Assembly (NCBI GenBank): GCA_944381155.1
Contig: CALWKA010000004.1
Coordinates: 246 to 64,245 of the forward strand
Reading direction: 5' to 3'
DNA length: 64,000 nucleotides
DNA from: an uncultured Clostridia bacterium
GTDB taxonomy: Bacteria > Bacillota > Clostridia > Christensenellales > UBA1242
The notes under the pieces are model-generated. The model was given only the letters and a program-made list of their open reading frames with translations, ran no database searches and had not been told where the DNA came from. Shown here one piece after another: positions 1-64,000 of this stretch (the first letter of the stretch is position 1; each line of letters begins with the position of its first letter). A program made the position numbers and the translations under genes.

Positions 1-190
<190 letters not shown>

Positions 191-11909: not shown

Positions 11910-11941
11910 AAAAAAGAATTCGCATAATGCGAATTCTTTTT
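11910..11941 (-). terminator. intrinsic terminator of giant gene
   Basis: AAAAAGAATTCGCAT-aa-TGCGAATTCTTTTT-type inverted repeat overlapping the stop codon. Confidence 0.85.
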
Positions 11942-25013: not shown

Positions 25014-27641
25014 ATGTTAGACAAAACTTACGAACCTCAAAACAAAGAAAATAAAATTTACAAAAAATGGGAAGAAAATCATTGTTTCAAACCTTTTTCA
25101 GATTTTTCAAAAGATTCAAGCAAAGAAAATTTTTCAATCATTATGCCCCCACCAAACATCACAGGTCAACTCCACATTGGGCACGCGCTCAACAACACCA
25201 CGCAAGATTTTTTGATTAGATTTAAGCGTATGAAAGGATTCAACACCCTTTGGATCCCAGGCACTGATCACGCTTCAATCGCTACCGAAGTAAAAATAAT
25301 TGAAGCCTTGAAAAAAGAAGGACTTTCAAAAGAAAAATTGGGTAGAGATGAATTTTTGAAACGCGCTTGGGAATGGAATGATAAATTTGGTGGACGCATA
25401 AAATTGCAGTTGAAGACATTGGGTTGCAGTTGCGACTGGGACAGATGTGCATTTACTATGGATGAAAAAAGGCAAAAATCTGTTTTGTATGTTTTCAAAA
25501 AATTGTACGACGAAGGACTGATTTATCGCGGAGAAAAATTGATCAACTGGTGCCCTACTTGCAAAACCGCTCTATCCGATGCAGAAGTTGAACATATTGA
25601 TGAAAATTCTAGCTTGTGGTATATCAGATATCCGTATGCTGACAATAGCGGTTATTTGGTCGTTGCCACCACCCGTCCTGAAACGATTTTTGGCGATGTT
25701 TGCGTCGCTGTCAATCCGAATGACGATAGGTACAAAGACAAGATTGGAAAAGAAGTCATCCTTCCTATTATTAACAAAAAAATTCGCGTCATTTCAGACG
25801 ACTATGTGGAAAAAGATTTTGGTACAGGCGTTGTGAAAATCACTCCTGCGCACGATTTTAACGATTATGAAGTGGGCAAGCGCCACGGCTTTGATCCGAT
25901 TAAAATTATGAATTTGGATGGCACAATGAATGAAAATTGTGGAAAATATGCCAATTTAGATAGATATGCTTGTAGAAAGCAATTGGTTGAAGATTTAAAA
26001 GCTGTTGGCTTAATCGAAAAAATTGAACCGTACAATCTCCCAAAAGCCACTTGTTATAGATGCCATAATGCGGTTGAACCTATGATGAGCAAACAATGGT
26101 TTATGAATATGCAAGATATGGCAAAATCTGGCTTGGAAGCAATTGACAATGACGAACTTGAAATCGTGCCAAACAGAGTGCAAAAAATATATAGAAATTG
26201 GCTTGAAAATATCAAAGATTGGTGCATCTCGCGTCAATTGTGGTGGGGACACAGAATCCCCGCATACTATTGCAAAGATTGTGGCAACACTATGGTAGAA
26301 ATAAATACTCCGCTAGTTTGCAACAAATGTGGTGGCAAAAATATTGAGCAAGATCCGGATGTGTTGGATACCTGGTTCAGTTCTGCCCTGTGGCCATTCT
26401 CCACAATGGGATATCCAGATGAAACTGACGATTTGAAAACTTTCTTCCCTACTTCAATTTTGGTGACTGCTCAAGATATTATATTCTTCTGGGTTGCTCG
26501 TATGGTGATGTTGTCAAAAAAGATTATGGGCAAGACGCCATTTAGCAAAGTGTTAATCAATGGAATTGTCCGTGATGACGAAGGCAAGAAAATGAGCAAG
26601 TCTTCAAACAATGGCGTGGATCCTATAGAGATTATTGAAAAATACGGTGCAGATTCTTTGCGACTATCGCTAATGTTTGGTAATGGCACGGGCAACGATT
26701 TCAGATTCAGTGAAGAAAAAATATTGGAGGACAGAAAATTCATCAACAAAGTATTCAATTCTGGCAAATTCTTGGAATTAGTTTTGAGTCAAACGACAGA
26801 GTCAAAATTAGACACTTCTAAATTGAACATTTTTGACAAATGGATATATTCAAAATTGTATGAAACAATCGATGAGATAAATAAACTTGTCGACAATTTG
26901 GATGTATGTCAAGCGGTGAATAAAATGTACTCGTTCGTATGGGACGAATTCTGCAATTATTATCTCGAATTTTCAAAACCTTATGTGTATAGCGAAGATC
27001 TAAAAATTCGTAGCAGTGCGTGTGCAATTTTGAAAGATGTTTATTTGAATATTTTAAAATTGTTGCACCCTATCATCCCTTTCATTACCGAAGATATATA
27101 TTCGAATTTTACAAATGAATTGTTGATCAATCAAAGCTATGCTTCTTCTATTGGATATTTCAAAAAAGAAAGCGAAGATGTAGAAAAAATTATTTCACTA
27201 ATTCAAAAAATAAGAGAAACAAGATTAAGTTTCAATGTCACTCCTTCAAAAAGAATTACGCTAGTTGTAGACAAAAATAATATTTCAGAAAATAGTTTGA
27301 ATATTATAAACGAGGCAAAATTAGTTTTATCAAAAATGACCAATATCGAAAAGATTGATATTTCAGAAAATATTGATAATGACGACATAAAATTTGTAAG
27401 CGAATTGGGAGAATTTTATTTCTACAAAAATGAAATTGTTGACACAGAAAAAGAACGCGAAAAAATTAATAAAGATATTGAAAAAATCAATTCCGAATTG
27501 AAGATTTTGGAAACTAGAATTCTCAATCCAAATTTTGTATCGCGTGCTCCTAAAGCTCTAGTAGAAAAAGAAAAGTCAAGATATGATTATTTATTGAATA
27601 GCAAAAATTCATTATTGGAAAAATTAAAAAATTTAAAATAA
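25014..27641 (+). CDS. valS: valine--tRNA ligase
   Basis: PPPNITGQLHIGH, GTDHASIAT, DWCISRQLWWGHRIP, KMSKS, C-terminal coiled coil; Val T-box upstream. Confidence 0.98.
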   Translation: MLDKTYEPQNKENKIYKKWEENHCFKPFSDFSKDSSKENFSIIMPPPNITGQLHIGHALNNTTQDFLIRFKRMKGFNTLWIPGTDHASIATEVKIIEALKKEGLSKEKLGRDEFLKRAWEWNDKFGGRIKLQLKTLGCSCDWDRCAFTMDEKRQKSVLYVFKKLYDEGLIYRGEKLINWCPTCKTALSDAEVEHIDENSSLWYIRYPYADNSGYLVVATTRPETIFGDVCVAVNPNDDRYKDKIGKEVILPIINKKIRVISDDYVEKDFGTGVVKITPAHDFNDYEVGKRHGFDPIKIMNLDGTMNENCGKYANLDRYACRKQLVEDLKAVGLIEKIEPYNLPKATCYRCHNAVEPMMSKQWFMNMQDMAKSGLEAIDNDELEIVPNRVQKIYRNWLENIKDWCISRQLWWGHRIPAYYCKDCGNTMVEINTPLVCNKCGGKNIEQDPDVLDTWFSSALWPFSTMGYPDETDDLKTFFPTSILVTAQDIIFFWVARMVMLSKKIMGKTPFSKVLINGIVRDDEGKKMSKSSNNGVDPIEIIEKYGADSLRLSLMFGNGTGNDFRFSEEKILEDRKFINKVFNSGKFLELVLSQTTESKLDTSKLNIFDKWIYSKLYETIDEINKLVDNLDVCQAVNKMYSFVWDEFCNYYLEFSKPYVYSEDLKIRSSACAILKDVYLNILKLLHPIIPFITEDIYSNFTNELLINQSYASSIGYFKKESEDVEKIISLIQKIRETRLSFNVTPSKRITLVVDKNNISENSLNIINEAKLVLSKMTNIEKIDISENIDNDDIKFVSELGEFYFYKNEIVDTEKEREKINKDIEKINSELKILETRILNPNFVSRAPKALVEKEKSRYDYLLNSKNSLLEKLKNLK

Positions 27642-48816: not shown

Positions 48817-51800
48817 TTATTCAGCATCTTTATTAGTTTCGTCGTCTGATGATTCATTAGACTTCTTATCTTCAGAATCTTCTATGACAATTTCGTCGTC
48901 TTTTTCTTCACTCGCTGCTACTTTTTCGTCTGCGTTCTTTGAAGATTTAGTTGATTTTGAAGATTTTTCTGCTGAATCTTTTTTGCTTGATTTATTCTTT
49001 GAACTTCCACCCTTTTTACCTGTGAATGTGAAGAATAGAATTACACCTGCAAGAATTACTAGAGATACTATGATCAAAATAATTCCTAAATATGAATCAT
49101 TTTCTTCTTCTGGTTGTGTTTCACTGACTACATTAAATTCAATAGTCTTTGTGCCTACATTGTCATAGTTATCTTCAATCGTCAAAGTCAATTTACATTT
49201 TCCTGTACCAGATATGATATATTGTCCATCTTCTTCGCCGTCTGATACAATGTTTGAATCGCTAGTTAATTCTACAGTCAAAGAGTTCCAATTCGTGATA
49301 GTAGATTCGGTACCGCTATCATTTTTATCTTTGATTACCAAACCTGTATCATAAGAATAAATTCTGTTTCCGTTGCTAATAACTTCGATTACTAATGTTC
49401 TATCGCTCTTGTCTAGATTGATATTGTATTCAATTTGATTCGTTCCGTCGTATACGATTTCTTGTGACAACTCATTTTCATAATTCATACTGAAGGTTGG
49501 AGCAACATTATCCCCTACTTTAATATTGAATGTTTCAGAAATCGTGCCATAATCTGTCTTTGCTGTATAAGTTACTTTATATGTTCCGCGAGTATTTTCA
49601 TTCGTCTTGAATGTCCATACCATAGCATCTCCATTTTGAGTCTTGACAGCATTGCCTGCTTCTGGAACTAGTCCGTCTGGATCTTTGACAGACACTGTAA
49701 CTTCTGCCTTCAAATTGCCCTGACTAGCAGTCCAATCTGGCAATATAATTGTTTCATTTTGTTTTGCATATTCAGGAACATCAATATCAAAATCCCAATC
49801 TAATTCTGGCATAGTGATATTAACATTGTATACGCGTTCTATTGGCGTACCATCTTCAGTATATCTTGCTGTGAATGTGATAGTATAATTACCTTCACTA
49901 TTGAAGCGGTATTCCATATAGTTACCCGTTTTTTCATAACTTAAACTTTGACTACCTGTATCAACAGTAGGTGTGTCAAATATAGTTTGAGCATCATTTG
50001 TGATATCATCTCCGCTGGATGAGAACAAACTAGGGTCAAATGATATAGTGGCGCCAACTTCGGCAGTGATAGTGTTTCCACTGATGCTAACTTCTGAACC
50101 ATCTACATTTGTACCTTCCGCATTGACAGACATATAAGGATCAGACGAATCATTGACAACAAATGAGAAATACACAGTCGTCATATTGCCCGCATCGTCT
50201 GTAGCGGTATAAACAACATAATATGTGCCAACTTTGCTAGTAGTAATAGTGCCACCCGTGATAGTATCATCGCTCATTTGCTTTCCGTTTGGAGATAGGA
50301 ACTGCAAACCTGTGCCAACACTATCTGGAGTGCCAATATAATAATTTACATTCAAAGCAAGATATTTATCTTCTTCGTCTGTAAATTGAACTGTAGGAAG
50401 AGTAACTGTTTCAACTTGGTCAAATTCTAATGTTTGCAAAATATCTGTGCTATTCGTACTAAAATCGCCTGCGTTAATTATGCTATATTCAGGTGCATTA
50501 GTTTCGTCAGTAATTTTGATATTCAACACGCGAGTAGCAGTAGCAATGTTACCCTCGTCATTGAGCGCAATAGCAACTAAATTCAACACATTGCCATTAG
50601 TCTCTGAATTATAGTTTTCCAATTTGATATCAAAACTATTTTCATTGTCTGCATCCATTGTAGCTATACCAAATCCGCTATACAATTTTTGCATTTCTTC
50701 AATAAATTCTTTTGAATCTAGCACATTGCAAAGATTCTTTGAAACTTCTGAATCTGGATTGCTAGTAACCGTTCTAATAGCATTCAAAATGTCAGTATTC
50801 AAATCATTTTCTGAACTTTCAGAATAATAATAGAAAACTGCATTCTTTAAACGCGTATCAATTTCATCACTAGAAGTAATATTAACATTGATATTATCAT
50901 CAGAAGAAATTGTAGCATTGTTCTTTACATTATTAATTTGGATAGTAGGAGTTGAACTATTTTCCTTATCCTCGCCTTCTGCTGCTGTAGCATCTGCCAC
51001 TGTAGGTCGTGACAATACTGTGATTGTGTATCTAGTTGTGCCCGTTCTATAAACATAACTTTCTTGTTTTGAAATTGTATTTGCTAATACATAATAACCA
51101 ACGGTGTATTCACCAGCATAGTCAGAAATGTTTGAATCATCTTGAGAGAATTTGAATTCAACAGCCTTGCTAGGATCTCCAATATTATCATCTCCTGAAT
51201 AGTTGTAACCCTGATCGCCTTCGTTTACATCGGTTAATACTCCATCAACCATCTTCTTATTGTCTATATAAAACATTTCGTGAGTGCTCGTGTTTTGAAT
51301 ATAACGGATGAATGTAAAATCTTTATATTCGGTCACTTTATCTGTAGCATAGATTGCTGGGAGCCTCAATTCGCTGTATCCATATCTAGTTTTCAAATCA
51401 ACTGCATAATTTGTGTTGACATCGTCCACTAATTCGCCGTCATCATTCTCAACTTGAACAGGATTTTCGGTCAATTCGTCTATCTCATAATCGTATGCCA
51501 TATACACGCTAGGACGAGTGTTGTCTGTAACATTTCTTATTACTACGCTAATTGATTTCGTATTGCCATAGGCGTCAACTATGTTGTATGTCACTCTATA
51601 ATCGCCAACCATATCAGCATAACTATCAGCATTGAAGTCTTCTTTTGTGAAATTAAATTCAAAGGTGTTGTTTGTCAAAGTTTGTGTGATATTTTCATTG
51701 TTTCTCTTTGTGATAGTGATAGAAGTAACATTGTGATCTACATTTGAATTGTCTTCATAACTAACTGTAAGTTTTGGCAAAGTCACGCCTTTGTCACCCA

Positions 51801-52680
51801 ATTCAACGCTAGGCATTGAAGGAGTGGTGATAGTGATGTCGTCGCTAGTAGGCACTTCGAAATCGTCAGACACATTGATTGTATATGTCACGGTAGGTGG
51901 ATTGCTACCTTGCTTGTATGTGTATTCCAAAGTGATAGTACCGCTCTCGCTAGGAGTGATATAATATTTACCTTCAGATTCGTAAATATAATCACTGCTT
52001 GACCATTCTTGAGGCGCACCATTTACTGTCACATTAGGGATAACGGTTGTAACAGATTCGTCATTGTCGCTATCTGCAACCTTAACATTGGCAACCGGCA
52101 CTTCAAACGCTTCATTGCTAGTACGCATAGAAAGAGGAACTAGATCTTTCAAACCAGTTTCTGCATCTACAAAATCTAATTCATAAGAGATATTTTTGAC
52201 TGTAACTTTGTAAGTGTTTGAATAATAAGTCTTGCCACCACTTGTAATGATATAAAGGATATCATATTGCCCGTTGTTGAGCGCATTGATTCCTAAATAA
52301 CCACTAGTACCAGAGATTTTCGTTTCGTCAAAATATTCTGTGTCGTTATTGCTTCCGCCCACGACATAGTCATAAGATTTGCCAGAAGGATCAACTACTC
52401 TAATGGTATAATTGGTTGCGGTATCTGCAAACAAACCAGAAGTCTTACCGCCAGACAAAGCGGTATCTAAAAGCGGAATTTCCACCTTTTCGCCCTTGGA
52501 CACATCCACTGTGCTCTTAGGCATTTTGATTGAATTAATAGCTGCATTATAAGTTTCAAATGTATAAGACATTTCAGCCGCATAAGTGGTCAATACTGGG
52601 CTGAAAGCAAAAACAATACTCATTACTGCAAAAGCTAAAAAACAAAATGTAAGTTTAAAGTATTTTTTTAACTGTTTCAT
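48817..52680 (-). CDS. surface protein with tandem Ig-like (DUF5011/HYR-like) repeats and C-terminal TM (1287 aa)
   Basis: AAGGAG SD; signal peptide; repeated G.Y.V.Y...D..GN motifs (YRVTYNIVDAYGN, YYVVYTATDDAGN); TM LGIILIIVSLVILAGVILFF; promoter TTGACA-17-TAAAAT at 52737-52709. Confidence 0.87.
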   Translation of the reverse strand: MKQLKKYFKLTFCFLAFAVMSIVFAFSPVLTTYAAEMSYTFETYNAAINSIKMPKSTVDVSKGEKVEIPLLDTALSGGKTSGLFADTATNYTIRVVDPSGKSYDYVVGGSNNDTEYFDETKISGTSGYLGINALNNGQYDILYIITSGGKTYYSNTYKVTVKNISYELDFVDAETGLKDLVPLSMRTSNEAFEVPVANVKVADSDNDESVTTVIPNVTVNGAPQEWSSSDYIYESEGKYYITPSESGTITLEYTYKQGSNPPTVTYTINVSDDFEVPTSDDITITTPSMPSVELGDKGVTLPKLTVSYEDNSNVDHNVTSITITKRNNENITQTLTNNTFEFNFTKEDFNADSYADMVGDYRVTYNIVDAYGNTKSISVVIRNVTDNTRPSVYMAYDYEIDELTENPVQVENDDGELVDDVNTNYAVDLKTRYGYSELRLPAIYATDKVTEYKDFTFIRYIQNTSTHEMFYIDNKKMVDGVLTDVNEGDQGYNYSGDDNIGDPSKAVEFKFSQDDSNISDYAGEYTVGYYVLANTISKQESYVYRTGTTRYTITVLSRPTVADATAAEGEDKENSSTPTIQINNVKNNATISSDDNINVNITSSDEIDTRLKNAVFYYYSESSENDLNTDILNAIRTVTSNPDSEVSKNLCNVLDSKEFIEEMQKLYSGFGIATMDADNENSFDIKLENYNSETNGNVLNLVAIALNDEGNIATATRVLNIKITDETNAPEYSIINAGDFSTNSTDILQTLEFDQVETVTLPTVQFTDEEDKYLALNVNYYIGTPDSVGTGLQFLSPNGKQMSDDTITGGTITTSKVGTYYVVYTATDDAGNMTTVYFSFVVNDSSDPYMSVNAEGTNVDGSEVSISGNTITAEVGATISFDPSLFSSSGDDITNDAQTIFDTPTVDTGSQSLSYEKTGNYMEYRFNSEGNYTITFTARYTEDGTPIERVYNVNITMPELDWDFDIDVPEYAKQNETIILPDWTASQGNLKAEVTVSVKDPDGLVPEAGNAVKTQNGDAMVWTFKTNENTRGTYKVTYTAKTDYGTISETFNIKVGDNVAPTFSMNYENELSQEIVYDGTNQIEYNINLDKSDRTLVIEVISNGNRIYSYDTGLVIKDKNDSGTESTITNWNSLTVELTSDSNIVSDGEEDGQYIISGTGKCKLTLTIEDNYDNVGTKTIEFNVVSETQPEEENDSYLGIILIIVSLVILAGVILFFTFTGKKGGSSKNKSSKKDSAEKSSKSTKSSKNADEKVAASEEKDDEIVIEDSEDKKSNESSDDETNKDAE

Positions 52681-53055: not shown

Positions 53056-53583
53056 CTATAATCGACTAATCTGCTGATTTGCATAACTTTTTGTGATAAA
53101 ATTAAACTCATCACTGCTAGCTAAAAAATATTGTTTTTCCCTATGCTTGTTCAGTTTGCTAATAAAATCACTATTCAACATTTTATATCTGTCCAACAAA
53201 ATATTGTTCAATTCTTCAAAATTCAAATTATTTGAATCTATCAACAATCTCTTTGTTTCCACCGCCCATTCGCTGGGTTCTACCCCATTCGATTTGTCAA
53301 AATCGCATAAGACATTCATATCTTCAGGGCTGGTCGTGAATCGCGTAATTATTTTGATTTTTTCTTGAATGGTGCGTGGCAATTCTTTCACTGCGTTTGC
53401 ATCCATATAATAGAATGAATACAATCTATCTGCTTCATTGAAAATAGCTTCTGCGCGTCTAGGGCGTTTCAATACAACTCTATCCCCGTATATGCCTCGA
53501 CCGCGCTTGTATTCTACAATCTCATAAAAATTGTTTATCAAAAAGTCTAACTGCGCCCAGTTCAATTTGTTAACTTTAGTCAT
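53056..53583 (-). CDS. hypothetical protein (175 aa)
   Basis: AAGGTG SD; starts 9 nt after the HicB-like gene; no recognised motif. Confidence 0.75.
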   Translation of the reverse strand: MTKVNKLNWAQLDFLINNFYEIVEYKRGRGIYGDRVVLKRPRRAEAIFNEADRLYSFYYMDANAVKELPRTIQEKIKIITRFTTSPEDMNVLCDFDKSNGVEPSEWAVETKRLLIDSNNLNFEELNNILLDRYKMLNSDFISKLNKHREKQYFLASSDEFNFITKSYANQQISRL

Positions 53584-53592
53584 ACGCTCACC

Positions 53593-53862
53593 TTATGCAA
53601 GTGCATCTACCAACAAAACTATGTTTTTCTTGTTCGCCTTGTAGACTTCTTCAAAATCGCGTGGTGCTTCTAATTCGCAATTGAATTTAATTGCACAGTC
53701 TACCATAGCGCACAAATCTTCTTTCGCCTTGATATATGCGTCAACAACGGTTTCACCTTCTTTGACAATATCCAATTCCTTAATATGAATAGTATACCAA
53801 CCAGTGTTGGAACCCTTTTCATCATCCTTATATAAAACTGCTGGATAAACTAATTCTTTCAT
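53593..53862 (-). CDS. HicB-like antitoxin N-terminal domain protein
   Basis: YPAVL...GWYTIHIKEL...EGETV.DA...AKE.L pattern; GAGGGTG SD; TTTACA-17-TATAAT promoter. Confidence 0.7.
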   Translation of the reverse strand: MKELVYPAVLYKDDEKGSNTGWYTIHIKELDIVKEGETVVDAYIKAKEDLCAMVDCAIKFNCELEAPRDFEEVYKANKKNIVLLVDALA

Positions 53863-54105
53863 AATCACCCTCTCTGCTTGTAAACAATTATACCACAAAA
53901 AAAATGATATGTAAAATAAAATGTTTTAATAAATATAAAAATTTCATCAAAAAAAACTCCTAAAAGGAGTTTAGTGATAAAAACAAATATATTACTATCT
54001 AACTACTTTAACTATAATTATAACAGCAATATTTATATAATTCGAATATTTATAATTTTTAATTTGAAAGTTTTATTTGAAAATTTCATTAATTAAAAGT
54101 TTGAA

Positions 54106-54492: not shown

Positions 54493-54732
54493 AATTCCTC
54501 CTAATTTATGACTACATAATACCACAAAATTTTTTATTTGTAAATAGTTTTATAAAAATTTTTAATAAATAATAAAATTAAATAAAATACTATAAAATAG
54601 AGGATTTTTACGAATTTTAATTTGTTATTATAAATTTTTTTTAATATAATGTCAATATTTTTTTTAATAATTTTAATATATTTATTATCTTTTAATTTCT
54701 AACTCTAAAATTAATCACTACAAAATTAAAAT

Positions 54733-54774
54733 AAAAAAAATCTCACAAAATTGTTGATTTTATTTGTGAGATTT
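54733..54774 (-). terminator. intrinsic terminator after rpoC
   Basis: AAATCTCACAAA...TTTGTGAGATTT plus T-run on the minus strand. Confidence 0.8.
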
Positions 54775-54785
54775 CAGTATTAATA

Positions 54786-57700
54786 TTAGTCTTCAATATC
54801 GCTAAATTTGATATCCACATCTTGACTAGAAAGAGATGAATTGTCTTCCTTGATTTGCTTTGGAAGAAGATTTCTATAGATTGGAGCGCCTGTTCCTGCT
54901 GGAATCATCTTACCAATCAAGATATTTTCTTTCAAGCCTACAAGGTGGTCAACTTTGCCCTTCAATGCAGCTTCTGTCAACACATTGCTTGATTCCTGGA
55001 ACGAAGCAGCGGACAAGAAACTTTCTGTCGTCAAAGATGCTTTTGTGATACCTTGCAATTCGCGTTTTGCTGTGGCAGGAATTCCGCCTTCTTGCAATGT
55101 TTTCAATTTAGCTTCTTCGAACACCTTTATATCAACTATATCGCCAGGCAACAAGTCTGTATCTCCTGAATTTTCAATCTTAACTTTTCTAAGCATCTGT
55201 TTGATGATGACTTCAAGGTGTTTAGCATTGATAGAAACAGATTGAGATTTATAGACTTCAAGCACTTCGTTCAACAAATATTCCTGAACTGCTTTCACAC
55301 CACGCGTACGCAACACATCTTTTGGATTCAAAGGTCCTTCAGTGAGCGCTGTACCCGGAGTGACCACATCGCCATTTTTCACTTTCAAAACTGAACCAAA
55401 TGGCAATAGATAACTTTCATCAATAGTGCTTCCTTTGATAACCACTTCATAACGCTTATCCACTTGATTGATGCTGACTTTACCGCCAATGTCACATATT
55501 ACTGCCGCACCTTTTGGATTGCGGGCTTCGAAAATTTCTTCCACCCTAGGAAGACCAGTGGTTATATCAGCGGATGCAGTACCACCGCTATGGAAGGTAC
55601 GAAGCACCAACTGTGTACCAGGTTCACCGATTGATTGAGCGGCGATAACTCCGACTGCTTCACCAACATGGACGATATCATTAGTAGACATATCTCTACC
55701 ATAACATTTAGCACACACGCCTGATTTTGCTTTACAAGTGAGCAAACTTCTGATTTGAACTTTTTGAATGCCGGCATCAACAATAGTTTGAGCAAGTTCA
55801 TTAGTGATGAACACATCCTCGCCACAAATTTCCTTTTTAGTTTTAGGATGGATCACAGGCGCTGAAGTAAATCTACCAACAATACGATTGAACAAAGATT
55901 CAACTTCTGCACCATTGCTAATGATTGCTGTCACTTCAATACCTTTCACAGGTTCGCCAAGATTAGCAAAGCAATCTTCTTCTGTGACTGTAGTATCTTG
56001 AGCAATATCCACAAGTCTTCTCGTCAAATAACCTGAATCGGCTGTCTTCAATGCGGTATCCATCAATTGTTTACGACTACCACGCGCCGCGCTATAATAT
56101 TCAAGCGAACTCAAACCGCGTCTGAAATTTGACTTAACAGGCACATCACTATCTCCACCGCTCGCGGACGCCATATTACCCAACATACCGCTCAATTGTT
56201 TCAAAGAGTCTTCGCCACCACGCGCCTTTGATGTAATGATCACTTTCAATGGATTGAATTTATCAAATTCGTTGCTGGTTACTTTCATAACCTTGTTTGC
56301 AGTTTCTTCCCAAATTGCAATATTTTTTGATTTTTTATCATTATAACTGATGAAACCTTGCATATACATAGCATCGTTTTGTTTTACAACTTTGTCTGCT
56401 TCTTCAATCATTTGATCTTTCTCTTTTGCTTCAAGAATATCAAATATTGAGAATGATATACTAGCAAGAGTTGAATATTTGAATCCCATATTTTTGATAT
56501 CATCTATCATTGTAACAGTAGGATTGGTGCCGTGCTTTCTATAGCAAGTTTCAATAAGGCTTGAATAATCTCCCTTTTTGAACTCTTTTTCAATTTCATA
56601 ATGGAAAATATTTTCTTTCTTCGTCCTATCCACGAATCCTAAATCTTGTGGAATGACGCTATTGAAGATGATTCTTCCTAAAGTTGTTTCAATTCTGCCG
56701 GTATATTGCTTTCCTTCAAATTCAACCGTCCTACGAAGATTGATTTTTGCTTGCAAGCTCAACTCGCCGTTTTCATACGCCAACATTGCCTCATCTTCGC
56801 TACCAAAGGTCATTCCTTCACCTTTTGCGCCATCGCGAATTGCAGTGATATAATAATTTCCCAATATCATATCTTGGCTAGGTACCATATTTGGACTGCC
56901 GTCACTTGGCTTCAATACATTGTTTGAAGCAAGCAACAACATTCTAGCTTCTGTCCTTGCCTCTACAGACAAAGGTACATGGATACTCATCTGGTCACCA
57001 TCGAAGTCCGCGTTGAATCCACCGCACGCCAAAGGTGGCAATCTGATAGCCTTTCCTTCTACTAGTATTGGTTCAAACGCCTGCACGCTCAATTTGTGCA
57101 AAGTAGGTGCACGGTTCAAAAGCACAGGATGCCCTTGCACAACTTCTGCCAATATATCAAACACAACAGGACGCTCCTGATCGATCATACGAGTAGCTTT
57201 CTTTAGATTGTTGGTTGCATTAAGTTCAAGCAAACGCTTTATTATAAATGGTCTAAACAACTCCAAAGCCATTGATTTTGGAAGTCCGCATTGATATATT
57301 TTCAATTCAGGACCAACCACGATAACGCTACGCCCAGAATAATCGACACGCTTTCCTAGCAAGTTTTGACGGAAACGGCCGTGTTTACCCTTTAAAGATG
57401 CAGTGAGAGATTTTAAGTCACGCTGTCTGCTTCCTTGCACTGCTCTACCGCGTTTTCCGTTATCAAATAGGGCGTCAACCGCTTCTTGCAACATTCTTTT
57501 TTCATTTCTAATAATGATCTCTGGTGCGCCCAATTCGATCAATTTCTTCAATCTGTTATTTCTATTTATTACTCTACGATACAAATCATTCAAATCTGAT
57601 GCCGCAAACTTTCCGCCATCAATTTGAACAAGTGGACGCAAATCTGGTGGGATGACTGGAATCACATCTAGTATCATCCAACTAGGCTTGTTTCCGCTCT

Positions 57701-58355
57701 TGATGAAGGCTTCCACAATTTCAAGACGCTTGGTAGCCTTCAATTTCTTTTGACCTTTGCTCGTGCGCATAATTTCAGTCAATTCATCGCGCTCTTTTTC
57801 CAAGTCTATATTGTTCAAAAGCTCTTTGATTGCCTCTGCTCCCATACCAGCTCTAAATCCGTTAGGTCCGTATTTTTCAAGAGCTTCACGATATTCTCTA
57901 TCTCTGATAATCTGTTTGTAAGTAAACTCTGTATTCTTCGGATCAAGCACAACATAGCTGACATAGTATAACACTTCATCCAATTGCTTTGGAGACATAT
58001 CAAGAATAATGCCTATACGAGATGGCACCGCTTTGAAAAACCAAATATGGCTTACAGGAGTAGCGAGTTCAATATGTCCCATTCGTTCGCGTCTAACCTT
58101 GCTACGAGTGACTTCCACACCGCACTTGTCGCAGACAACACCTTTGTATCTCACTCTCTTGTATTTTCCGCAATGACATTCCCAATCTTTTTTAGGTCCA
58201 AAAATACGCTCGCAAAACAATCCGTCCTTTTCGGGCTTTTGTGTACGATAATTGATTGTTTCGGGTTTTGTCACCTCTCCCCTTGACCAACTTCTGATCG
58301 TTTCGGGAGAAGCGATTCCTACACGAATTGAGTCAAAATTGTTTAATTCAAACAT
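54786..58355 (-). CDS. rpoC: DNA-directed RNA polymerase subunit beta' (divergent)
   Basis: [10 protein letters not shown], zinc finger, [46 protein letters not shown]. Confidence 0.99.
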
Positions 58356-58467
58356 TTTATTTCTCCTAAAATTGTATATTTCAATTAAGTAAACTTCTCG
58401 AATATATTTCTCTCAATTTGTTCACTTTCATAAGGTTAAATTCTATAATGAAGTCCAACCTTAAATT

Positions 58468-61400
58468 TTATTCATCCGAATCATCCAAATCGTCAAACAA
58501 TGCAGACTCATCAAATGTGCTACTATTGATATCACACTCATAATTCTTTTGAATATCATCAAATTCAACTGTGACATCTTCAAGCGCTTGCTTGTTGACA
58601 GGTTCGATTGCACTGACTTCATCGCCTTCTTCGCTGACTTCATTGATTGAAAGTTCGTGATTGTCTGCCGTCAATATCTTCACATCTAGGCATAATCCTT
58701 GCATTTCCTTAACCAAAACTTTGAACGACTCTGGCATACCAGGTTCTGGAATAGGTTCACCTTTCACGATCGCTTCATAAGTCTTGATTCTTCCTTCCAC
58801 ATCATCCGATTTGATAGTGAGCATTTCTTGAAGAAGTCGTGATGCTCCATACGCTTCGAGCGCCCACACTTCCATTTCACCGAACCTTTGACCACCTAGT
58901 TGACCACGACCGCCAAGAGGTTGCTGAGTGATAAGTGCGTATGTTCCAATTCCACGCGCGTGAATTTTATCATCTACCATATGGATAAGTTTCAACATAT
59001 ACATCACGCCCACTGTCGTTTTATTTTCAAATGGAAGTCCTGTCCTTCCGTCATACAATTGCATCTTTCCATCTTCTGGAAGATTGTTTGCACGCAACAA
59101 TTCTCTAATATCTTCTTCTTTTGCTCCGTCAAACGCAGGGCTAGCAACTTTCCAATCTAGCGATTTAGCAGCAAGCCCTAGATGCATTTCAAGCAACTGT
59201 CCTAAATTCATACGAGATGGTATTCCCAATGGATTCAACACGATGTCCACCGTTTCGCCATTTGGCATATATGGCATATCTGATTCTGGAAGGACTACTG
59301 ATATAACGCCTTTGTTACCATAACGACCTGCAAGTTTATCTCCGACTTGCAAAATTCGTTTTTGTGCAATGTAAACTTTTACCATTACATTCACGCCTGC
59401 ATCTAGTTCGTCTTTGTTCTTCCTAGACAGGATCTCTACGCCCACGACCACACCTTCTTCGCCGTGTTTTACTTTCAAAGAAGTGTTTTTAACTTCTTTC
59501 GTCTTTTCACCAAAGATTGCTTTTAATAGTCTTTCTTCAGGGGTAAGATCGGTTTCTCCTTTAGGAGTGACCTTTCCTACCAATATATCTCCCACCTTAA
59601 CTTCGGTACCAATTCGAACAATACCATTTTCGTCAAGGTTCTTCAATGCGTCTTCGCCCACGCCGGCTATATCACGAGTGATTTCTTCATCGCCTAGTTT
59701 GGTAGTGCGCGCTTCGGTACGCACTTGTTGAATACTAATAGAAGTAAACACATCATCGCGCACGATTCTTTCGTTCACCAATATAGCATCCTCGAAGTTG
59801 TATCCTTCCCAGTTCATAAACGCTACTGTCAAGTTCTTGCCTAGCGCCAACTCACCATTTTCAGTGGATGCACCATCTACTAGCACATCACCCTTTTTCA
59901 CTCTTTCGCCCTTTTTCACAATAGGTTTTTGATTGAAACAAGCTTTTTCGTTCGTGCGTTCAAACTTACGCAATTTGTGATTTACGATTGAGCCGTCATC
60001 ATATTCCATAGTGATATAGTCACTTGAAACATATTTACAAACGCCGTCTTGCTCTGCCATTATGAGTGCGCCCGAGTCAACTGCAATTTTATGCTCAATA
60101 CCTGTACCCACAATAGGGCTTTCAGATCTAATTAATGGAACGGACTGACATTGCATATTACATCCCATCAATGCACGGTTCGCCGCGCAGTGTTCAACGA
60201 ATGGAATCAAGTCTGCACCGACAGACAGTAATTGTCTTGGTGACAAGTCCACCAAATCAATCATATTGGAATCTACTCGCGCAGTCTGACCATTGTGCCT
60301 ACAATCAATATATCCTGATTGAAGAATATTTTTATCATCCACATCAACTGTTGCCTGTGCGATATAGTGACCGCGTTCTTCATCTGCCATCAAGAACACG
60401 ATTTCATCAGTCAATTTGTGTGTGTTTGGATCCACCTTTCTATAAGGTGTTTCAATAAATCCATATCTATTTACGCGCGCATAAGCGGCAAGTGAGGTCA
60501 TAAGTCCGATAGGTTGTCCTTCTGGGGTCTCAACCACACATATACGCCCATAGTGAGATGGGTTGATATCACGAACTTCCACTGTTGCACGCTCTTTCTT
60601 GACACCACCCTTACCAAATGATGACAAACGCCTCTTGTTTCTCAAACTAGCGGCTGGATTAGTTTGATCCATCAACGCGCTCAACTGGTTAGTCGCCATA
60701 AATTCTTTGAAGATTTTATTTATCTGTCTAGCATTGACTATCTGACTAGGTGTCACATCTGTCAAATCACGACTTTGCAACGCTTCTCTCACTTGTGTTT
60801 GAAGTTTTACCATACCGCTACGGAATTGATTCTTTAACAATTCACCGCTGGTAGCCACTCTACGCATAGACAAGTTATCAATTTCATCCGTCTCGCCCAA
60901 GCCGTCTATCAAATTCAAATGATAACTAACTGTGGCAAGAATATCGTCCAATGTCACTTGATAATCTTCAAGTTTCCTAGCATTTGCCTTGATTGTAGCG
61001 CGAAGTGCATTTTCGTCATCTTTATTCTCTTTCATTATCTGTTGAAGCAAAGGCAAATAAACTAGTTCGGTGATGCCAAATTCTTCAGGATTGAGTTTAG
61101 CATAGGCAAACAAGTCCACGCGTTTGTTGCCTACCACATGCACCACTTTCTCATCCACCAAAACATCTGCACTATTAATTCCTGCATTTTGAATGGCATT
61201 AGCCTGTTCAATAGAGATTATTTCACCCTTTGAAACAAACAATTTTTTGCCCAACTTTATATCTTCTGCTGCCACTTGATTTGCAATACGATTTGCTAGC
61301 GACAACTTTTTATTCAATTTAAAACGCCCAACCTTTTCCAAATTGTATTGTTGGATGTTAAAGAATCTGTCATTTATATATGACAAAGTGTTTTCAGGGT

Positions 61401-62151
61401 TAGGGATTTCGCCTGGACGCGTCCTTCTACCAAATTCAATCAAAGCATCTTCTTGAGTGATTTGTTGCTCTTTGTCCAAAGTGTTGACAATGAATGGATG
61501 ATGCGCAAAAATTTCCAACAATTCTTCGTTGGTATATCCAAAACATTTGAGCAAAACGCCCAAACTCATTTTGAATTTTCTTTCCACAATCACGCGGAGT
61601 GAATCACCTGTCACCTGTTCAGTCTGTATCCACATACCGTGACTTGGTTGAATAGAACCAAAATAGTCCATACGACCATACTTGTTCAATTCCCCTGTGA
61701 ACACCACGCCAGGAGATTTGATGAGTTGATTCAAAACAACACGTTCAACGCCGTTGCAAATAAATCCACCATCATTAGACATATATGGAATATCGCCCAA
61801 AAAGACTTCCTGATCCATAATTTGACCAGTTTCTTTCACCAAAAGACGAACATTCACTTTGAGCGGAACGGTGTAACTAGTCTGCCTGCGCTTGCATTCT
61901 GCCCACGAAAATTTTGGTGTTTTGTCCACTGTATAACCCAAAAAAGACAACTCGGCTCTGTTCGAGTAGTCTATGATAGGATTAAATTCGTTCAAAACCT
62001 CTCCAATGTCTTCTTCTAAAAACTTTTTATACGATTCAATTTGAATGTTGAGTAGGTTTGGCATCGTGTATGGGACATCTTTCTTGGCAAAACTGTATCT
62101 TTCCGCCTTACCATTTTTAATTTTTTTGATGTTGAGTGTGTTTGAATTCAT
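58468..62151 (-). CDS. rpoB: DNA-directed RNA polymerase subunit beta (divergent)
   Basis: MDQTNP, HYGRIC..ETPEG, GYNFEDA, GKVTPKGE, PSRMN, GGQRFGEMEVWALEAYGA. Confidence 0.99.
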   Translation of the reverse strand: MNSNTLNIKKIKNGKAERYSFAKKDVPYTMPNLLNIQIESYKKFLEEDIGEVLNEFNPIIDYSNRAELSFLGYTVDKTPKFSWAECKRRQTSYTVPLKVNVRLLVKETGQIMDQEVFLGDIPYMSNDGGFICNGVERVVLNQLIKSPGVVFTGELNKYGRMDYFGSIQPSHGMWIQTEQVTGDSLRVIVERKFKMSLGVLLKCFGYTNEELLEIFAHHPFIVNTLDKEQQITQEDALIEFGRRTRPGEIPNPENTLSYINDRFFNIQQYNLEKVGRFKLNKKLSLANRIANQVAAEDIKLGKKLFVSKGEIISIEQANAIQNAGINSADVLVDEKVVHVVGNKRVDLFAYAKLNPEEFGITELVYLPLLQQIMKENKDDENALRATIKANARKLEDYQVTLDDILATVSYHLNLIDGLGETDEIDNLSMRRVATSGELLKNQFRSGMVKLQTQVREALQSRDLTDVTPSQIVNARQINKIFKEFMATNQLSALMDQTNPAASLRNKRRLSSFGKGGVKKERATVEVRDINPSHYGRICVVETPEGQPIGLMTSLAAYARVNRYGFIETPYRKVDPNTHKLTDEIVFLMADEERGHYIAQATVDVDDKNILQSGYIDCRHNGQTARVDSNMIDLVDLSPRQLLSVGADLIPFVEHCAANRALMGCNMQCQSVPLIRSESPIVGTGIEHKIAVDSGALIMAEQDGVCKYVSSDYITMEYDDGSIVNHKLRKFERTNEKACFNQKPIVKKGERVKKGDVLVDGASTENGELALGKNLTVAFMNWEGYNFEDAILVNERIVRDDVFTSISIQQVRTEARTTKLGDEEITRDIAGVGEDALKNLDENGIVRIGTEVKVGDILVGKVTPKGETDLTPEERLLKAIFGEKTKEVKNTSLKVKHGEEGVVVGVEILSRKNKDELDAGVNVMVKVYIAQKRILQVGDKLAGRYGNKGVISVVLPESDMPYMPNGETVDIVLNPLGIPSRMNLGQLLEMHLGLAAKSLDWKVASPAFDGAKEEDIRELLRANNLPEDGKMQLYDGRTGLPFENKTTVGVMYMLKLIHMVDDKIHARGIGTYALITQQPLGGRGQLGGQRFGEMEVWALEAYGASRLLQEMLTIKSDDVEGRIKTYEAIVKGEPIPEPGMPESFKVLVKEMQGLCLDVKILTADNHELSINEVSEEGDEVSAIEPVNKQALEDVTVEFDDIQKNYECDINSSTFDESALFDDLDDSDE

Positions 62152-62266
62152 TCATTAACTCCTTATTCAGATGTTTTCCCTATATTTATATAAGTAAATT
62201 ACATATTAATAACTATATCATATATAAAATACATTTTCTACTAGGGACAATCGTTCAATCTAGTCA

Positions 62267-62295
62267 ATCATAGCATAATCCACAATTAATGTCAA
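62267..62295 (-). promoter_or_regulatory. sigma-A promoter of rpoBC
   Basis: TTGACA-17-TATGAT with extended TG. Confidence 0.8.
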
Positions 62296-63035: not shown

Positions 63036-63245
63036 TTAGCAACCGCAGTTATCTTTCTTTCCGCCACCACAGCCACATAAAATTAGCAAAATTATTATAA
63101 GTAGGCAAGGATCAACTTTACAACCACAATTGCATAAGATCAATATCAAGATAATAATCCAAGTGCAATCATTACAGCCACATCCTGAATTGTTGCCACA
63201 ATCGTTGCAACAGTCAGTTCCGCCAGCAAAGAATTTATTAAACAT
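63036..63245 (-). CDS. small Cys/Gly-rich hydrophobic protein, probable spore coat/exosporium component
   Basis: AGGAGG SD; CGC repeats around two IIIL(I/L)(L/I) segments; sigma-K-like AC-N16-CATATTAG at 63299-63274. Confidence 0.8.
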   Translation of the reverse strand: MFNKFFAGGTDCCNDCGNNSGCGCNDCTWIIILILILCNCGCKVDPCLLIIILLILCGCGGGKKDNCGC

Positions 63246-63550: not shown

Positions 63551-64000
63551 TTAAGAAAATGATTCAAGTTTTTGTCTTATCATTTGTTTTAGTTGAACAA
63601 TATTTTTCCCACTCTTCGCGCCCACATAACAAGTGTCATACGGATATGATCTCAATTTTGAAATCTCGCCGTCATTTAGTTTGTCAATCTTGTTGTAAAC
63701 TAAAATCACCTTGTTGCTATCTGTGCCCACTCGCTTTAACTCTTTTTCTACCACTTCAATTTGATCATATTTATTCGGATCGCTAGCATCCACCACCAAT
63801 ATCAATACATTTGCATCTATCGTTTCTTCTAGGGTGGCGGAAAAAGCATACACCAATTCGTGCGGAAGATTGCTCACAAATCCAACGGTATCAATTAGCA
63901 CATATTCCATTCCATTATCCCAAACTTTTTTTGACAGCACATCAAGCGTCGCAAAGAGTCTGTCATCTGCGTATGTGCCTGCTTTTGTGATTGCATTCAT
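63551..64000 (-). CDS. hflX: GTPase HflX, 3' portion (5' end outside window)
   Basis: DRLFATLD, DTVGFVSNLPHELV.AF.ATLEE, VVDAS, NKID. Confidence 0.95.
   Translation of the reverse strand: MNAITKAGTYADDRLFATLDVLSKKVWDNGMEYVLIDTVGFVSNLPHELVYAFSATLEETIDANVLILVVDASDPNKYDQIEVVEKELKRVGTDSNKVILVYNKIDKLNDGEISKLRSYPYDTCYVGAKSGKNIVQLKQMIRQKLESFS

Follow-up and report, generated by a model that had tools for sequence, protein, structure and literature searches.

The rpoB and rpoC genes of the window, the whole stretch of 64,000 nucleotides that we analysed, very probably encode the beta and beta-prime subunits of the sole housekeeping RNA polymerase core of a fast-evolving Candidatus Onthoplasma lineage, in which altered motifs have been inherited. 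The source organism is a Candidatus Onthoplasma species of the family UBA1242, order Christensenellales; the main text of PMC12306168 places Onthoplasma in this gut family, with genomes under 1 Mb. Members of UBA1242 carry genomes of roughly 1 Mb and are probably partner-dependent. The polymerase would work like any bacterial one, with one core expressed from its own rpoBC transcription unit and programmed by SigA and the retained sporulation-type sigma factors. Its altered motifs would have gathered stepwise along the long branch to the Onthoplasma clade, as one element of a speeding-up of protein evolution across the genome that accompanied genome reduction, and strong purifying selection would later have frozen them.

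Both genes lie on the minus strand as intact, single-copy open reading frames: rpoB at 58468..62151 (1227 aa) and rpoC at 54786..58355 (1189 aa), with a 112-nt spacer between them (58356..58467, minus strand) that is predicted to fold into three hairpins (-19.7 kcal/mol). RpoB contains the Pfam domains Rpb2_1, 2, 3, 45, 6 and 7, all in order, and matches NCBIfam NF001616/TIGR02013 at 1428.2 bits (cut-off 896) over model positions 2-1095 of 1096; RpoC contains all five Rpb1 Pfam domains and matches TIGR02386 at 1642 bits (cut-off 963.5) over positions 1-1145 of 1147. A promoter-like site, TTGACA-17-TATGAT with a TG extension (62267..62295, minus strand), lies some 115 nt ahead of the rpoB start and is a consensus match only, at 11 of 12 positions; because 49 sites this good were seen against 41.6 expected by chance from shuffles, it is weak evidence. 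Directly after the rpoC stop, at about 54728..54775 (minus strand), a predicted terminator-like hairpin (13-bp stem, 13-nt loop; -13.7 kcal/mol) leads into a U run; the terminator scan missed it because of the length of its loop.

On the 5' side of rpoB are a Cys-rich ORF of 69 aa and the end of an HflX gene (63551..64000); on the 3' side of rpoC are a surface protein of 1287 aa and three small ORFs that matched no family. The genes are thus apart from rplL and rpsL, as the original prediction had noted: rplL is on a different contig, and the S12 family (rpsL) had no match in the source assembly, which is 92% complete. This arrangement had been taken to point to a second polymerase. Three relatives (L141, L102 and L115) also carry rpoBC without adjoining rplL and rpsL, and their motifs are mostly or fully canonical, so the stand-alone gene order lends a second polymerase no support.

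A second core with a specialised role would mean that a canonical partner copy was missed through incomplete assembly. The position of rpoBC away from ribosomal protein genes would fit such a reading, as would the state of the source genome (1.0 Mb, metagenome-assembled, 18 contigs, just 92% complete), but that genome gave one match each for rpoB (Rpb2_6 family) and rpoC (Rpb1_1 family). No second rpoB or rpoC was found in 24 genomes of the same genus, four of which (G008, G009, G010 and G014) are about 98-99% complete, and all 24 carry only the altered type; multiple matches within a genus genome were non-overlapping pieces of one gene, split at contig ends. Of 41 related genomes, 39 gave an RpoB and 40 an RpoC, and all 28 high-quality ones gave both. 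The canonical form of the pattern, present in 73 of 81 Clostridia, had no match in the source genome. Having found single copies in the source and only the altered type in the genus, we rejected a second specialised core; a missed partner copy is highly improbable, and the second-polymerase reading is close to refuted.

Still less credible is an artefact of assembly or binning, in which the contig would be foreign or chimeric or the genes decaying. The source is indeed a metagenome-assembled genome in 18 contigs; against this, the order rpoB, rpoC, uvrB, uvrA, groEL, valS, clpX recurs on contigs of independent genus genomes (for example G007:C5 and G008:C7), both ORFs are intact, and dN/dS is about 0.01-0.02. 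The source genome encodes SigA together with SigE-, SigF-, SigG-, SigK- and SigH-like factors; with these present, the usual route for specialised transcription is sigma switching on one core. The omega subunit scores only 20-25 bits in the genus, below the cut-off, which it exceeds in 14 of the 16 other families.

All six variants of near-invariant motifs that the original prediction quoted are present in the translations, and the quoted regions differ from solved polymerases in five of the five alignments listed per region. In RpoB, Y944 (59320..59322, minus strand) replaces the His of the GR(H/Y)GNKG motif (E. coli H1070Y), with the flanking K1065 and K1073 equivalents kept; residues 1064-1085 (E. 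coli 1244-1265; 58897..58962, minus strand) carry S1247G, T1248I, 1250T, S1252A, K1262R, A1263G and F1265L. In RpoC, the alignment places H325 (57381..57383, minus strand) at the Gln of the GK(Q/H)GRF motif (E. coli Q335H). Residues 421-457 of the same subunit (E. coli 431-467; 56985..57095, minus strand) carry R431K, G433S, I434V, H450P, V453A, A455G, A456G, Y457F and A467S; R425, N458 and the Asp triad 460/462/464 (E. coli numbering) are kept. The bridge-helix start (RpoC 754-765, E. coli 773-784; 56061..56096, minus strand) shows F773Y, I774S, S775A, T776A, H777R, A779S, G782Q and A784M, and the trigger-loop start (RpoC 915-922; 55590..55613, minus strand) shows E. coli T931V and M932L, with Q929, R933 and H936 kept.

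The catalytic residues are retained throughout. Gapless alignment ranges to the E. coli chain equate RpoB K939, K947 and H1057 with K1065, K1073 and H1237, the active-centre Lys and His residues of beta. As had been claimed, RpoC has NADFDGD and candidate zinc ligands: four N-terminal Cys and four Cys of the second site were read by eye in the translation, and the zinc sites themselves are predicted. NADFDGD and the equivalents of R425, N458 and Q929, beta-prime residues described as substrate-contacting in the part of PMC7862312 that deals with their roles, are all at aligned positions. Across the catalytic beta-prime segment the source genome keeps 46 of 46 strictly invariant columns. Of the 83 columns there with conservation of 95% or more, it departs at 6, a number above the 95th percentile (3) and below the maximum (7) among 118 library representatives. 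The motif changes are mostly conservative (R/K, I/V, A/S, M/L).

Comparison with the solved enzymes PDB 8i23, 7l7b, 6wvj and 8x6f, housekeeping polymerases of Clostridia and Bacilli, gave full-length collinear matches with the same domain set and the same catalytic residues (respectively 1378, 1319, 1224 and 1190 bits for RpoB and 1577, 1543, 1458 and 1363 bits for RpoC). The difference is that the solved enzymes are canonical at every motif position quoted, whereas Onthoplasma is altered. Nocardia, Nonomuraea and Actinomadura, with their duplicated rpoB, also have an RpoB that is divergent and altered in its rifampicin region, but there two copies are present and in Onthoplasma one; a survey reports 90 species with two rpoB copies (PMC12337354). 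In the Mollicutes, too, the sole polymerase serves a lineage of roughly 1-Mb genomes and has Asn at E. coli position 526; Onthoplasma differs in belonging to the Clostridia (Christensenellales), in having His or Asn at 526 within the genus and in keeping sporulation-type sigma factors. Plant Pol IV and Pol V are multisubunit polymerases in which conservation of the active site is relaxed: according to the abstract of bioRxiv 10.1101/117184 they still make RNA with many ultra-conserved positions changed relative to related enzymes. Unlike these extra paralogues, which exist beside Pol II, the Onthoplasma enzyme is the sole polymerase and keeps the strictly invariant positions.

The substitutions are fixed genus-wide and nested in a wider clade: most occur in neighbouring genera as well, and about one third are common to a wider sister group. 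All 22 genus sequences have the Tyr of GRYGNKG, where all 7 other families have His; all 21 genus sequences have HKLSVQ as well as His in the GKH motif, where all 9 other families are canonical. The new residues are fixed, each in 29-32 of the 32 sequences from Onthoplasma. RpoB is fixed-different at 87 of 559 order-invariant columns (29 common with the sister group, 51 with just the nearest genera and 7 present in Onthoplasma alone) and RpoC at 53 of 537 (17, 26 and 10, respectively). The aligned beta-prime Lys state was found in 2 of 401 Clostridia genomes, both in UBA1242. The proposal of a lineage-wide rewiring of the catalytic centre thus stands in a weaker form, in so far as the changes are fixed in the genus and nested in a clade and the beta-prime Lys state is rare in Clostridia; it falls short in that the invariant columns are intact, the changes are mostly conservative and acceleration extends to further core proteins of this genome.

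To place this divergence in context, we compared RpoB and RpoC with five control proteins and seven outgroup genomes, taking as the measure of acceleration the ratio of the maximum-likelihood distance between the source genome and other families to that among other families. The ratio was 1.82 for RpoB and 1.62 for RpoC, and 2.60 for GroEL, 1.52 for ValS, 1.44 for UvrA, 1.41 for ClpX and 1.00 for UvrB; the fraction of order-invariant sites changed in the source genome was 0.32 for GroEL, 0.26 for RpoB, 0.19 for ValS, 0.15 for RpoC, 0.11 for UvrA, 0.10 for ClpX and 0.06 for UvrB. The view that ClpX, UvrA and UvrB look conventional therefore holds for UvrB, which is not accelerated, and not for the other two. 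Divergence is high but not peculiar to the polymerase, GroEL being more accelerated; RpoB and RpoC nevertheless rank above the median of the accelerated proteins, in the upper half.

The two genes are now under strong purifying selection: against the three closest genomes, with dS near saturation, dN/dS is 0.010-0.017 for rpoB and 0.019-0.022 for rpoC. AT mutational bias accounts for little of the change; RpoB has 18 losses and 13 gains of GARP residues and 25 gains and 13 losses of FYMINK residues, and RpoC shows no AT-type residue bias. The ratio of stem to crown branch was 2.43 for RpoB and 1.52 for RpoC, against 0.92 for UvrA and 0.33 for GroEL, the only two controls in this comparison, indicating that change in the polymerase was disproportionate on the stem and slower thereafter. 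Such a stem burst is not predicted by a uniform genome-wide rate increase.

We infer that the cause was mainly relaxed selection or drift with compensatory change, and not a new function; the stem burst, together with a remodelled rifampicin pocket, leaves modest room for an adaptive reading. It is possible, if unlikely, that a polymerase-specific episode on the stem re-tuned the active centre of the sole polymerase under selection for partner-dependent life, giving measurably different kinetics, substrate affinity or inhibitor sensitivity. UBA1242 genomes are reported in the abstract of PMC12306168 to be without nucleotide biosynthesis, and their NTP pools would then be scavenged and possibly low or unbalanced; alternatively, growth may be slow. 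The sites concerned would be the bridge-helix start (G782Q, F773Y), the trigger-loop start (T931V, M932L), the loops flanking the catalytic Asp triad (R431K, H450P, A467S) and, in beta, the segments beside K1065/K1073 and downstream of H1237, with H1070Y and the rebuilt rifampicin pocket.

Consistent with such selection are the stem excess of both subunits, the fixation of the post-burst residues under a dN/dS of about 0.01-0.02, and the location of several changes in elements that set catalytic rate and substrate choice, including those in the bridge helix and M932L at a sugar-selectivity position, where Ala in E. coli beta-prime shifted sugar selectivity about 3-fold (PMC7862312). However, the changes are mostly conservative and leave the invariant columns intact, GroEL, which is unrelated to NTPs, is even more accelerated overall, about one third of the changes are older than the split from the sister group, and the stem excess was measured against two control proteins only. 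If true, the re-tuned enzyme would suit a partner-dependent cell unable to make its own nucleotides.

The rifampicin-resistance-determining region (RpoB 484-516, E. coli 504-534; 60604..60702, minus strand) carries 513A, 514L, 526N (RpoB N505), 532S and 533F and keeps D516, R529 and S531 in E. coli numbering. Positions 513, 526 and 533 vary inside the genus, which is unusual for these sites, and 526 is Gln in 37 of 37 sister-group sequences. Both 526N and 526Q belong to a published panel for predicted intrinsic rifampicin resistance, 526N being reported for nearly all Mollicutes and 526Q for 25 species (PMC12337354). From these residues it could be supposed, though we consider it doubtful and somewhat less likely than re-tuning of the active centre, that natural polymerase inhibitors of the gut remodelled the pocket, and perhaps other inhibitor sites, leaving the lineage intrinsically rifamycin-insensitive, as in Mollicutes. 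Yet 526 is His in many species of the genus, so that the genus has no uniform resistant state; relaxed constraint predicts the same variation equally, and the pocket changes accompany about 140 other fixed changes across both subunits. Epistasis can also silence such resistance residues, a caveat raised in PMC12337354 itself.

Inheritance by a sole, fast-evolving housekeeping polymerase removes a false lead, as the genes represent neither a second polymerase nor a new system. The main text of the paper characterising UBA1242 (PMC12306168) does not contain 'RNA polymerase', 'transcription' or 'sigma', and among the papers listed for UBA1242 (18 of 20) and Onthoplasma (3) no title or abstract opening is about the polymerase. 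For enzymologists, the lineage offers a natural set of substitutions that purifying selection maintains at sites with 95% or higher conservation elsewhere, among them beta-prime 431, 450 and 467, position 782 of the bridge helix and position 932 of the trigger loop; the enzyme that carries them must be fully functional. A widespread group of uncultured gut Clostridia is predicted to carry the rifampicin-pocket variants 526N or 526Q, which would bear on the effects of rifamycins on gut communities. In this reduced-genome family, the polymerase changed mostly on the stem and then froze, while GroEL continued changing.

The two genes at issue lie on the minus strand of the window, which comes from a Candidatus Onthoplasma genome (here G000): rpoB (58468..62151, 1227 aa) and rpoC (54786..58355, 1189 aa) are both intact and stand 112 nt apart. 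The predicted fold of this spacer (58356..58467, minus strand) has three hairpins, at -19.7 kcal/mol. RpoB carries six Rpb2 and RpoC five Rpb1 Pfam domains; against the NCBI equivalog models they scored 1428 bits (cut-off 896) and 1642 bits (cut-off 963.5), respectively, both at full length, and their closest solved relatives are chains of 8i23, 7l7b, 6wvj and 8x6f. As an observation, the original prediction of intact reading frames with altered motifs holds: every altered motif that it named is present in the translations, and each region is unlike the solved enzymes in five of five alignments.

To describe the changes in E. coli numbering (canonical residue first), alignments to the E. coli chains were treated as gapless because query and target ranges were equal in length. 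The changes in beta-prime are Q335H, R431K, G433S, I434V, H450P, V453A, A455G, A456G, Y457F and A467S, with F773Y, I774S, S775A, T776A, H777R, A779S, G782Q and A784M in the bridge helix and T931V and M932L in the trigger loop; those in beta are H1070Y, S1247G, T1248I, S1252A, K1262R, A1263G and F1265L. The rifampicin region of beta is also altered (G507A, S508T, S509N, Q513A, F514L, L521A, S522A, E523S, T525R, H526N, A532S, L533F and P535K). Retained are R425, N458, D460/462/464, Q929, R933 and H936 of beta-prime, and K1065, K1073, H1237, D516, R529 and S531 of beta. A reading of the Arg-to-Lys change in HRLGIQ as E. coli R425K was dropped: the gapless ranges give R431K, and R425, described as a sugar-selectivity residue of E. 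coli beta-prime (PMC7862312), sits in NRAPTLH and is retained.

The altered motifs had been taken to mark either a paralogous second polymerase or a lineage-wide rewiring of the catalytic centre. The G000 assembly (1,015,321 bases in 18 contigs, 92.24% complete) gave a single match for each of the RpoB and RpoC families. Of 41 related genomes, 39 yielded RpoB and 40 yielded RpoC, and both subunits were present in 28 of 28 of high quality; several RpoB or RpoC entries from a single genome among the 41 proved to be successive parts of one gene, broken at contig ends. With one rpoB and one rpoC per genome, the idea of a paralogue is therefore refuted, as far as draft genomes allow. G000 has seven sigma-70 region-2 matches (loci L233-L239 on its contigs C10, C13, C3, C17 and C12), namely SigA, five sporulation-type best matches and one 175-aa fragment-like ORF; the best matches to SigE, SigF, SigG, SigK and SigH all fall below the equivalog cut-offs. 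GreA was found in 41 of 41 genomes. Omega was above its cut-off in 14 of 16 other families, and in the genus was seen only under the cut-off, at 20-25 bits in 13 of 24 genomes and in G000, whose 65-aa candidate (contig C6, 17600-17797, plus strand) scored 21.5 bits against PF01192 (cut-off 26).

The closest loci are those of Candidatus Onthoplasma, placed by NCBI in Christensenellales and assigned to GTDB family UBA1242 (PMC12306168). The same source describes this family as gut bacteria with genomes below 1 Mb, lacking biosynthesis of amino acids, nucleotides and lipids, calls them probably symbiotic or parasitic, and remarks on their sporulation genes as unexpected. Our draw from UBA1242 covered 58 genera, with genome sizes of 0.7-1.6 Mb.

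On the 5' side of rpoB lie about 0.9 kb devoid of any family-bearing ORF of at least 25 aa, a 69-aa Cys-rich ORF and the end of hflX; on the 3' side of rpoC, ORFs of 139, 101 and 175 aa belonging to no family precede a 1287-aa surface protein. The rplL gene of G000 is on a separate contig from rpoBC, and no S12 family was found in the assembly (92% complete). By consensus match, there is a promoter-like site upstream of rpoB (62295..62267) and a 13-bp hairpin with a U run after the rpoC stop, which would be compatible with an independent rpoBC unit; the hairpin, missed by a terminator scan with a loop limit of 8 nt, came to light when the sequence was read and folded. There is nothing special in the detached position of rpoBC. 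Both rplL and rpsL are also absent beside it in three relatives (L141, L102 and L115) whose motifs are mostly or fully canonical; at the locus of a close relative (L094), rpoBC is accompanied by three small ORFs, followed by rpsL, rpsG and fusA.

The 69-aa ORF (63036..63245, minus strand) has a hydrophobic core and tblastn matches at the equivalent position in 15 of 80 loci; Pfam at E <= 5 gave no match. The surface-type protein (48817..52680, minus strand) has a weak Ig-like match and follows the small ORFs in 24 loci, across which its identity is just 27-85%, so that it diverges far faster than its neighbours. Elsewhere, an ORF of 3638 aa (11940..22856, minus strand) has no NCBIfam match, and positions 1..190 (minus strand), at the edge of the window, carry the 5' end of a 16S rRNA gene. 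No tRNA genes were found in the window.

Of 80 RpoC loci, 30 and 28, respectively, retain the adjoining 101-aa (53593..53898) and 175-aa (53056..53583) ORFs, both on the minus strand of the window, at a distance of 0.5-2.5 kb downstream of rpoC, and all of these loci are in the clade with Lys at beta-prime 431; in the draw from UBA1242, the 175-aa gene was detected in 9 of 61 genomes. Over 16 sequences the 175-aa protein has a mean column identity of 75%, which marks it as strongly conserved, and every one of its 364 cluster matches is unnamed or 'hypothetical'; it showed no Pfam domain even at E <= 5, and a protein atlas search gave no usable match. Its predicted fold is confident (pLDDT 88); Foldseek against the PDB returned nothing at E <= 0.001, and a wide structural search found no clear relative, reaching Z 3.8 at best. 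Its N-terminal 80 residues bear a weak likeness to HicA toxin (Z 2.7-3.8), and the 101-aa protein has an antitoxin-like Pfam match below threshold (E 0.12). One guess is that a toxin-antitoxin-like pair may have been domesticated here; another is a factor linked to the polymerase.

Identity to the G000 polymerase is 77-99% (RpoB) and 77-97% (RpoC) within the genus, and 50-56% and 58-61%, respectively, in other families of the order. All 22 genus sequences compared have the Tyr of GRYGNKG, and all 21 have HKLSVQ and the GKH motif; HARGIGTYA is present in 19 of 21, with an intermediate form in the two most divergent members, G003 and G022; the listed substitutions are absent from the seven (RpoB) and nine (RpoC) other families compared. 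Across 80 loci, position 431 is Lys in 40 and Arg in 40. A DNA pattern for NRAPTLH followed by Lys occurred in 2 of 401 Clostridia genomes, G000 and one from another genus of the same family (reversed-pattern controls, 0); the Arg form occurred once each in 73 of 81 genomes, and G000 lacks it.

We then grouped 73 of the 80 loci for RpoB and 76 for RpoC, leaving out sequences shorter than 1150 aa, into Onthoplasma (31 loci plus G000), the nearest genera (6 RpoB, 7 RpoC), a sister group at 61-65% RpoC identity (37 and 39) and canonical families (8 and 11). Of 559 RpoB columns invariant in the canonical families, 87 are fixed for a different residue in Onthoplasma: 29 are common to at least half of the sister group, 51 to the nearest genera and not the sister group, and 7 are confined to Onthoplasma. 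For RpoC the count is 53 of 537 columns, divided in the same order into 17, 26 and 10. Separate changes are seen in the sister group, among them Pro after DFDGDQM, Ser in LHPS, Leu or Met for the Gln of GGKAQFGG, and Gln at beta position 526 (37 of 37 sequences).

RpoC residues 300-480 were searched against 1.84 billion representatives, and the result was used solely as conservation background; the Onthoplasma clade is unrepresented in that library, having been absorbed by clusters at 50% identity, so the search is silent on whether the full set of motifs also occurs in other lineages. Measured on the 118 full-coverage representatives of the 150 best library matches, a sample biased towards query-like sequences, G000 deviates at 6 of 83 columns conserved at 95% or more (R431K, I434V, H450P, A467S, V468I and M484L); the representatives themselves deviate at a median of 0, with a 95th percentile of 3 and a maximum of 7. 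None of the 46 columns invariant among the 118 is altered. Among the 150 best matches, Lys at 431 was present in 2 of 148 readable motifs, Pro at 450 in one representative, and Ala at 467 in 145 of 145 readable sequences. The proposed lineage-wide rewiring survives only as accelerated, mostly conservative change, with the catalytic residues and the examined invariant columns (beta-prime 300-480) intact.

Using the identical seven outgroup genomes for every protein, we found that the ML distance from G000 to the outgroups, relative to that among the outgroups, was 2.60 for GroEL, 1.82 for RpoB, 1.62 for RpoC, 1.52 for ValS, 1.44 for UvrA, 1.41 for ClpX and 1.00 for UvrB. The shares of outgroup-invariant sites changed in G000 were 0.32 for GroEL, 0.26 for RpoB, 0.19 for ValS, 0.15 for RpoC, 0.11 for UvrA, 0.10 for ClpX and 0.06 for UvrB; together with the distance ratios, they indicate that acceleration of the polymerase is strong and not unique. 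In trees that combined G000 with 18 genus and 7 outgroup genomes, the ratio of stem branch to genus crown depth was 2.43 for RpoB, 1.52 for RpoC, 0.92 for UvrA and 0.33 for GroEL: most of the change in the polymerase came before the radiation of the genus, and its pace then fell, whereas GroEL changed on. Present constraint on both genes is strong, dN/dS against the three closest genomes being 0.010-0.017 for rpoB and 0.019-0.022 for rpoC, at a dS of about 1-1.5, near saturation. AT mutational pressure was rejected as the chief driver of the changes; RpoB shows only a weak bias and RpoC none, and low-GC canonical relatives retain the canonical residues.

The valyl-tRNA synthetase of G000 (25014..27641, plus strand) is of the bacterial type. 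Eight of 24 same-genus genomes have this ValS at 62-92% identity; in the other 16, the place adjacent to groEL is occupied by an ORF of roughly 685-850 aa with just 29-35% identity, and both types occur together in two genomes of other families. It looks as though one ValS type was replaced by another within the genus.

Positions of the rifampicin pocket vary, unusually, inside the genus, with A, Q, S, G or V at 513, H or N at 526, and F, A, L or T at 533. Both 526N, carried by almost all Mollicutes, and 526Q are given among the residues that predict intrinsic rifampicin resistance (PMC12337354), a property predicted there for 8% of 18,127 species, including 144 Clostridia species. Judged from these residues, rifampicin insensitivity here would be a prediction of a known kind. 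The surplus of stem change, together with the alterations in bridge helix, trigger loop and rifampicin pocket, may have affected how the enzyme behaves; rpoBC itself encodes the one, ordinary housekeeping polymerase of a lineage that evolves fast and has a reduced genome.
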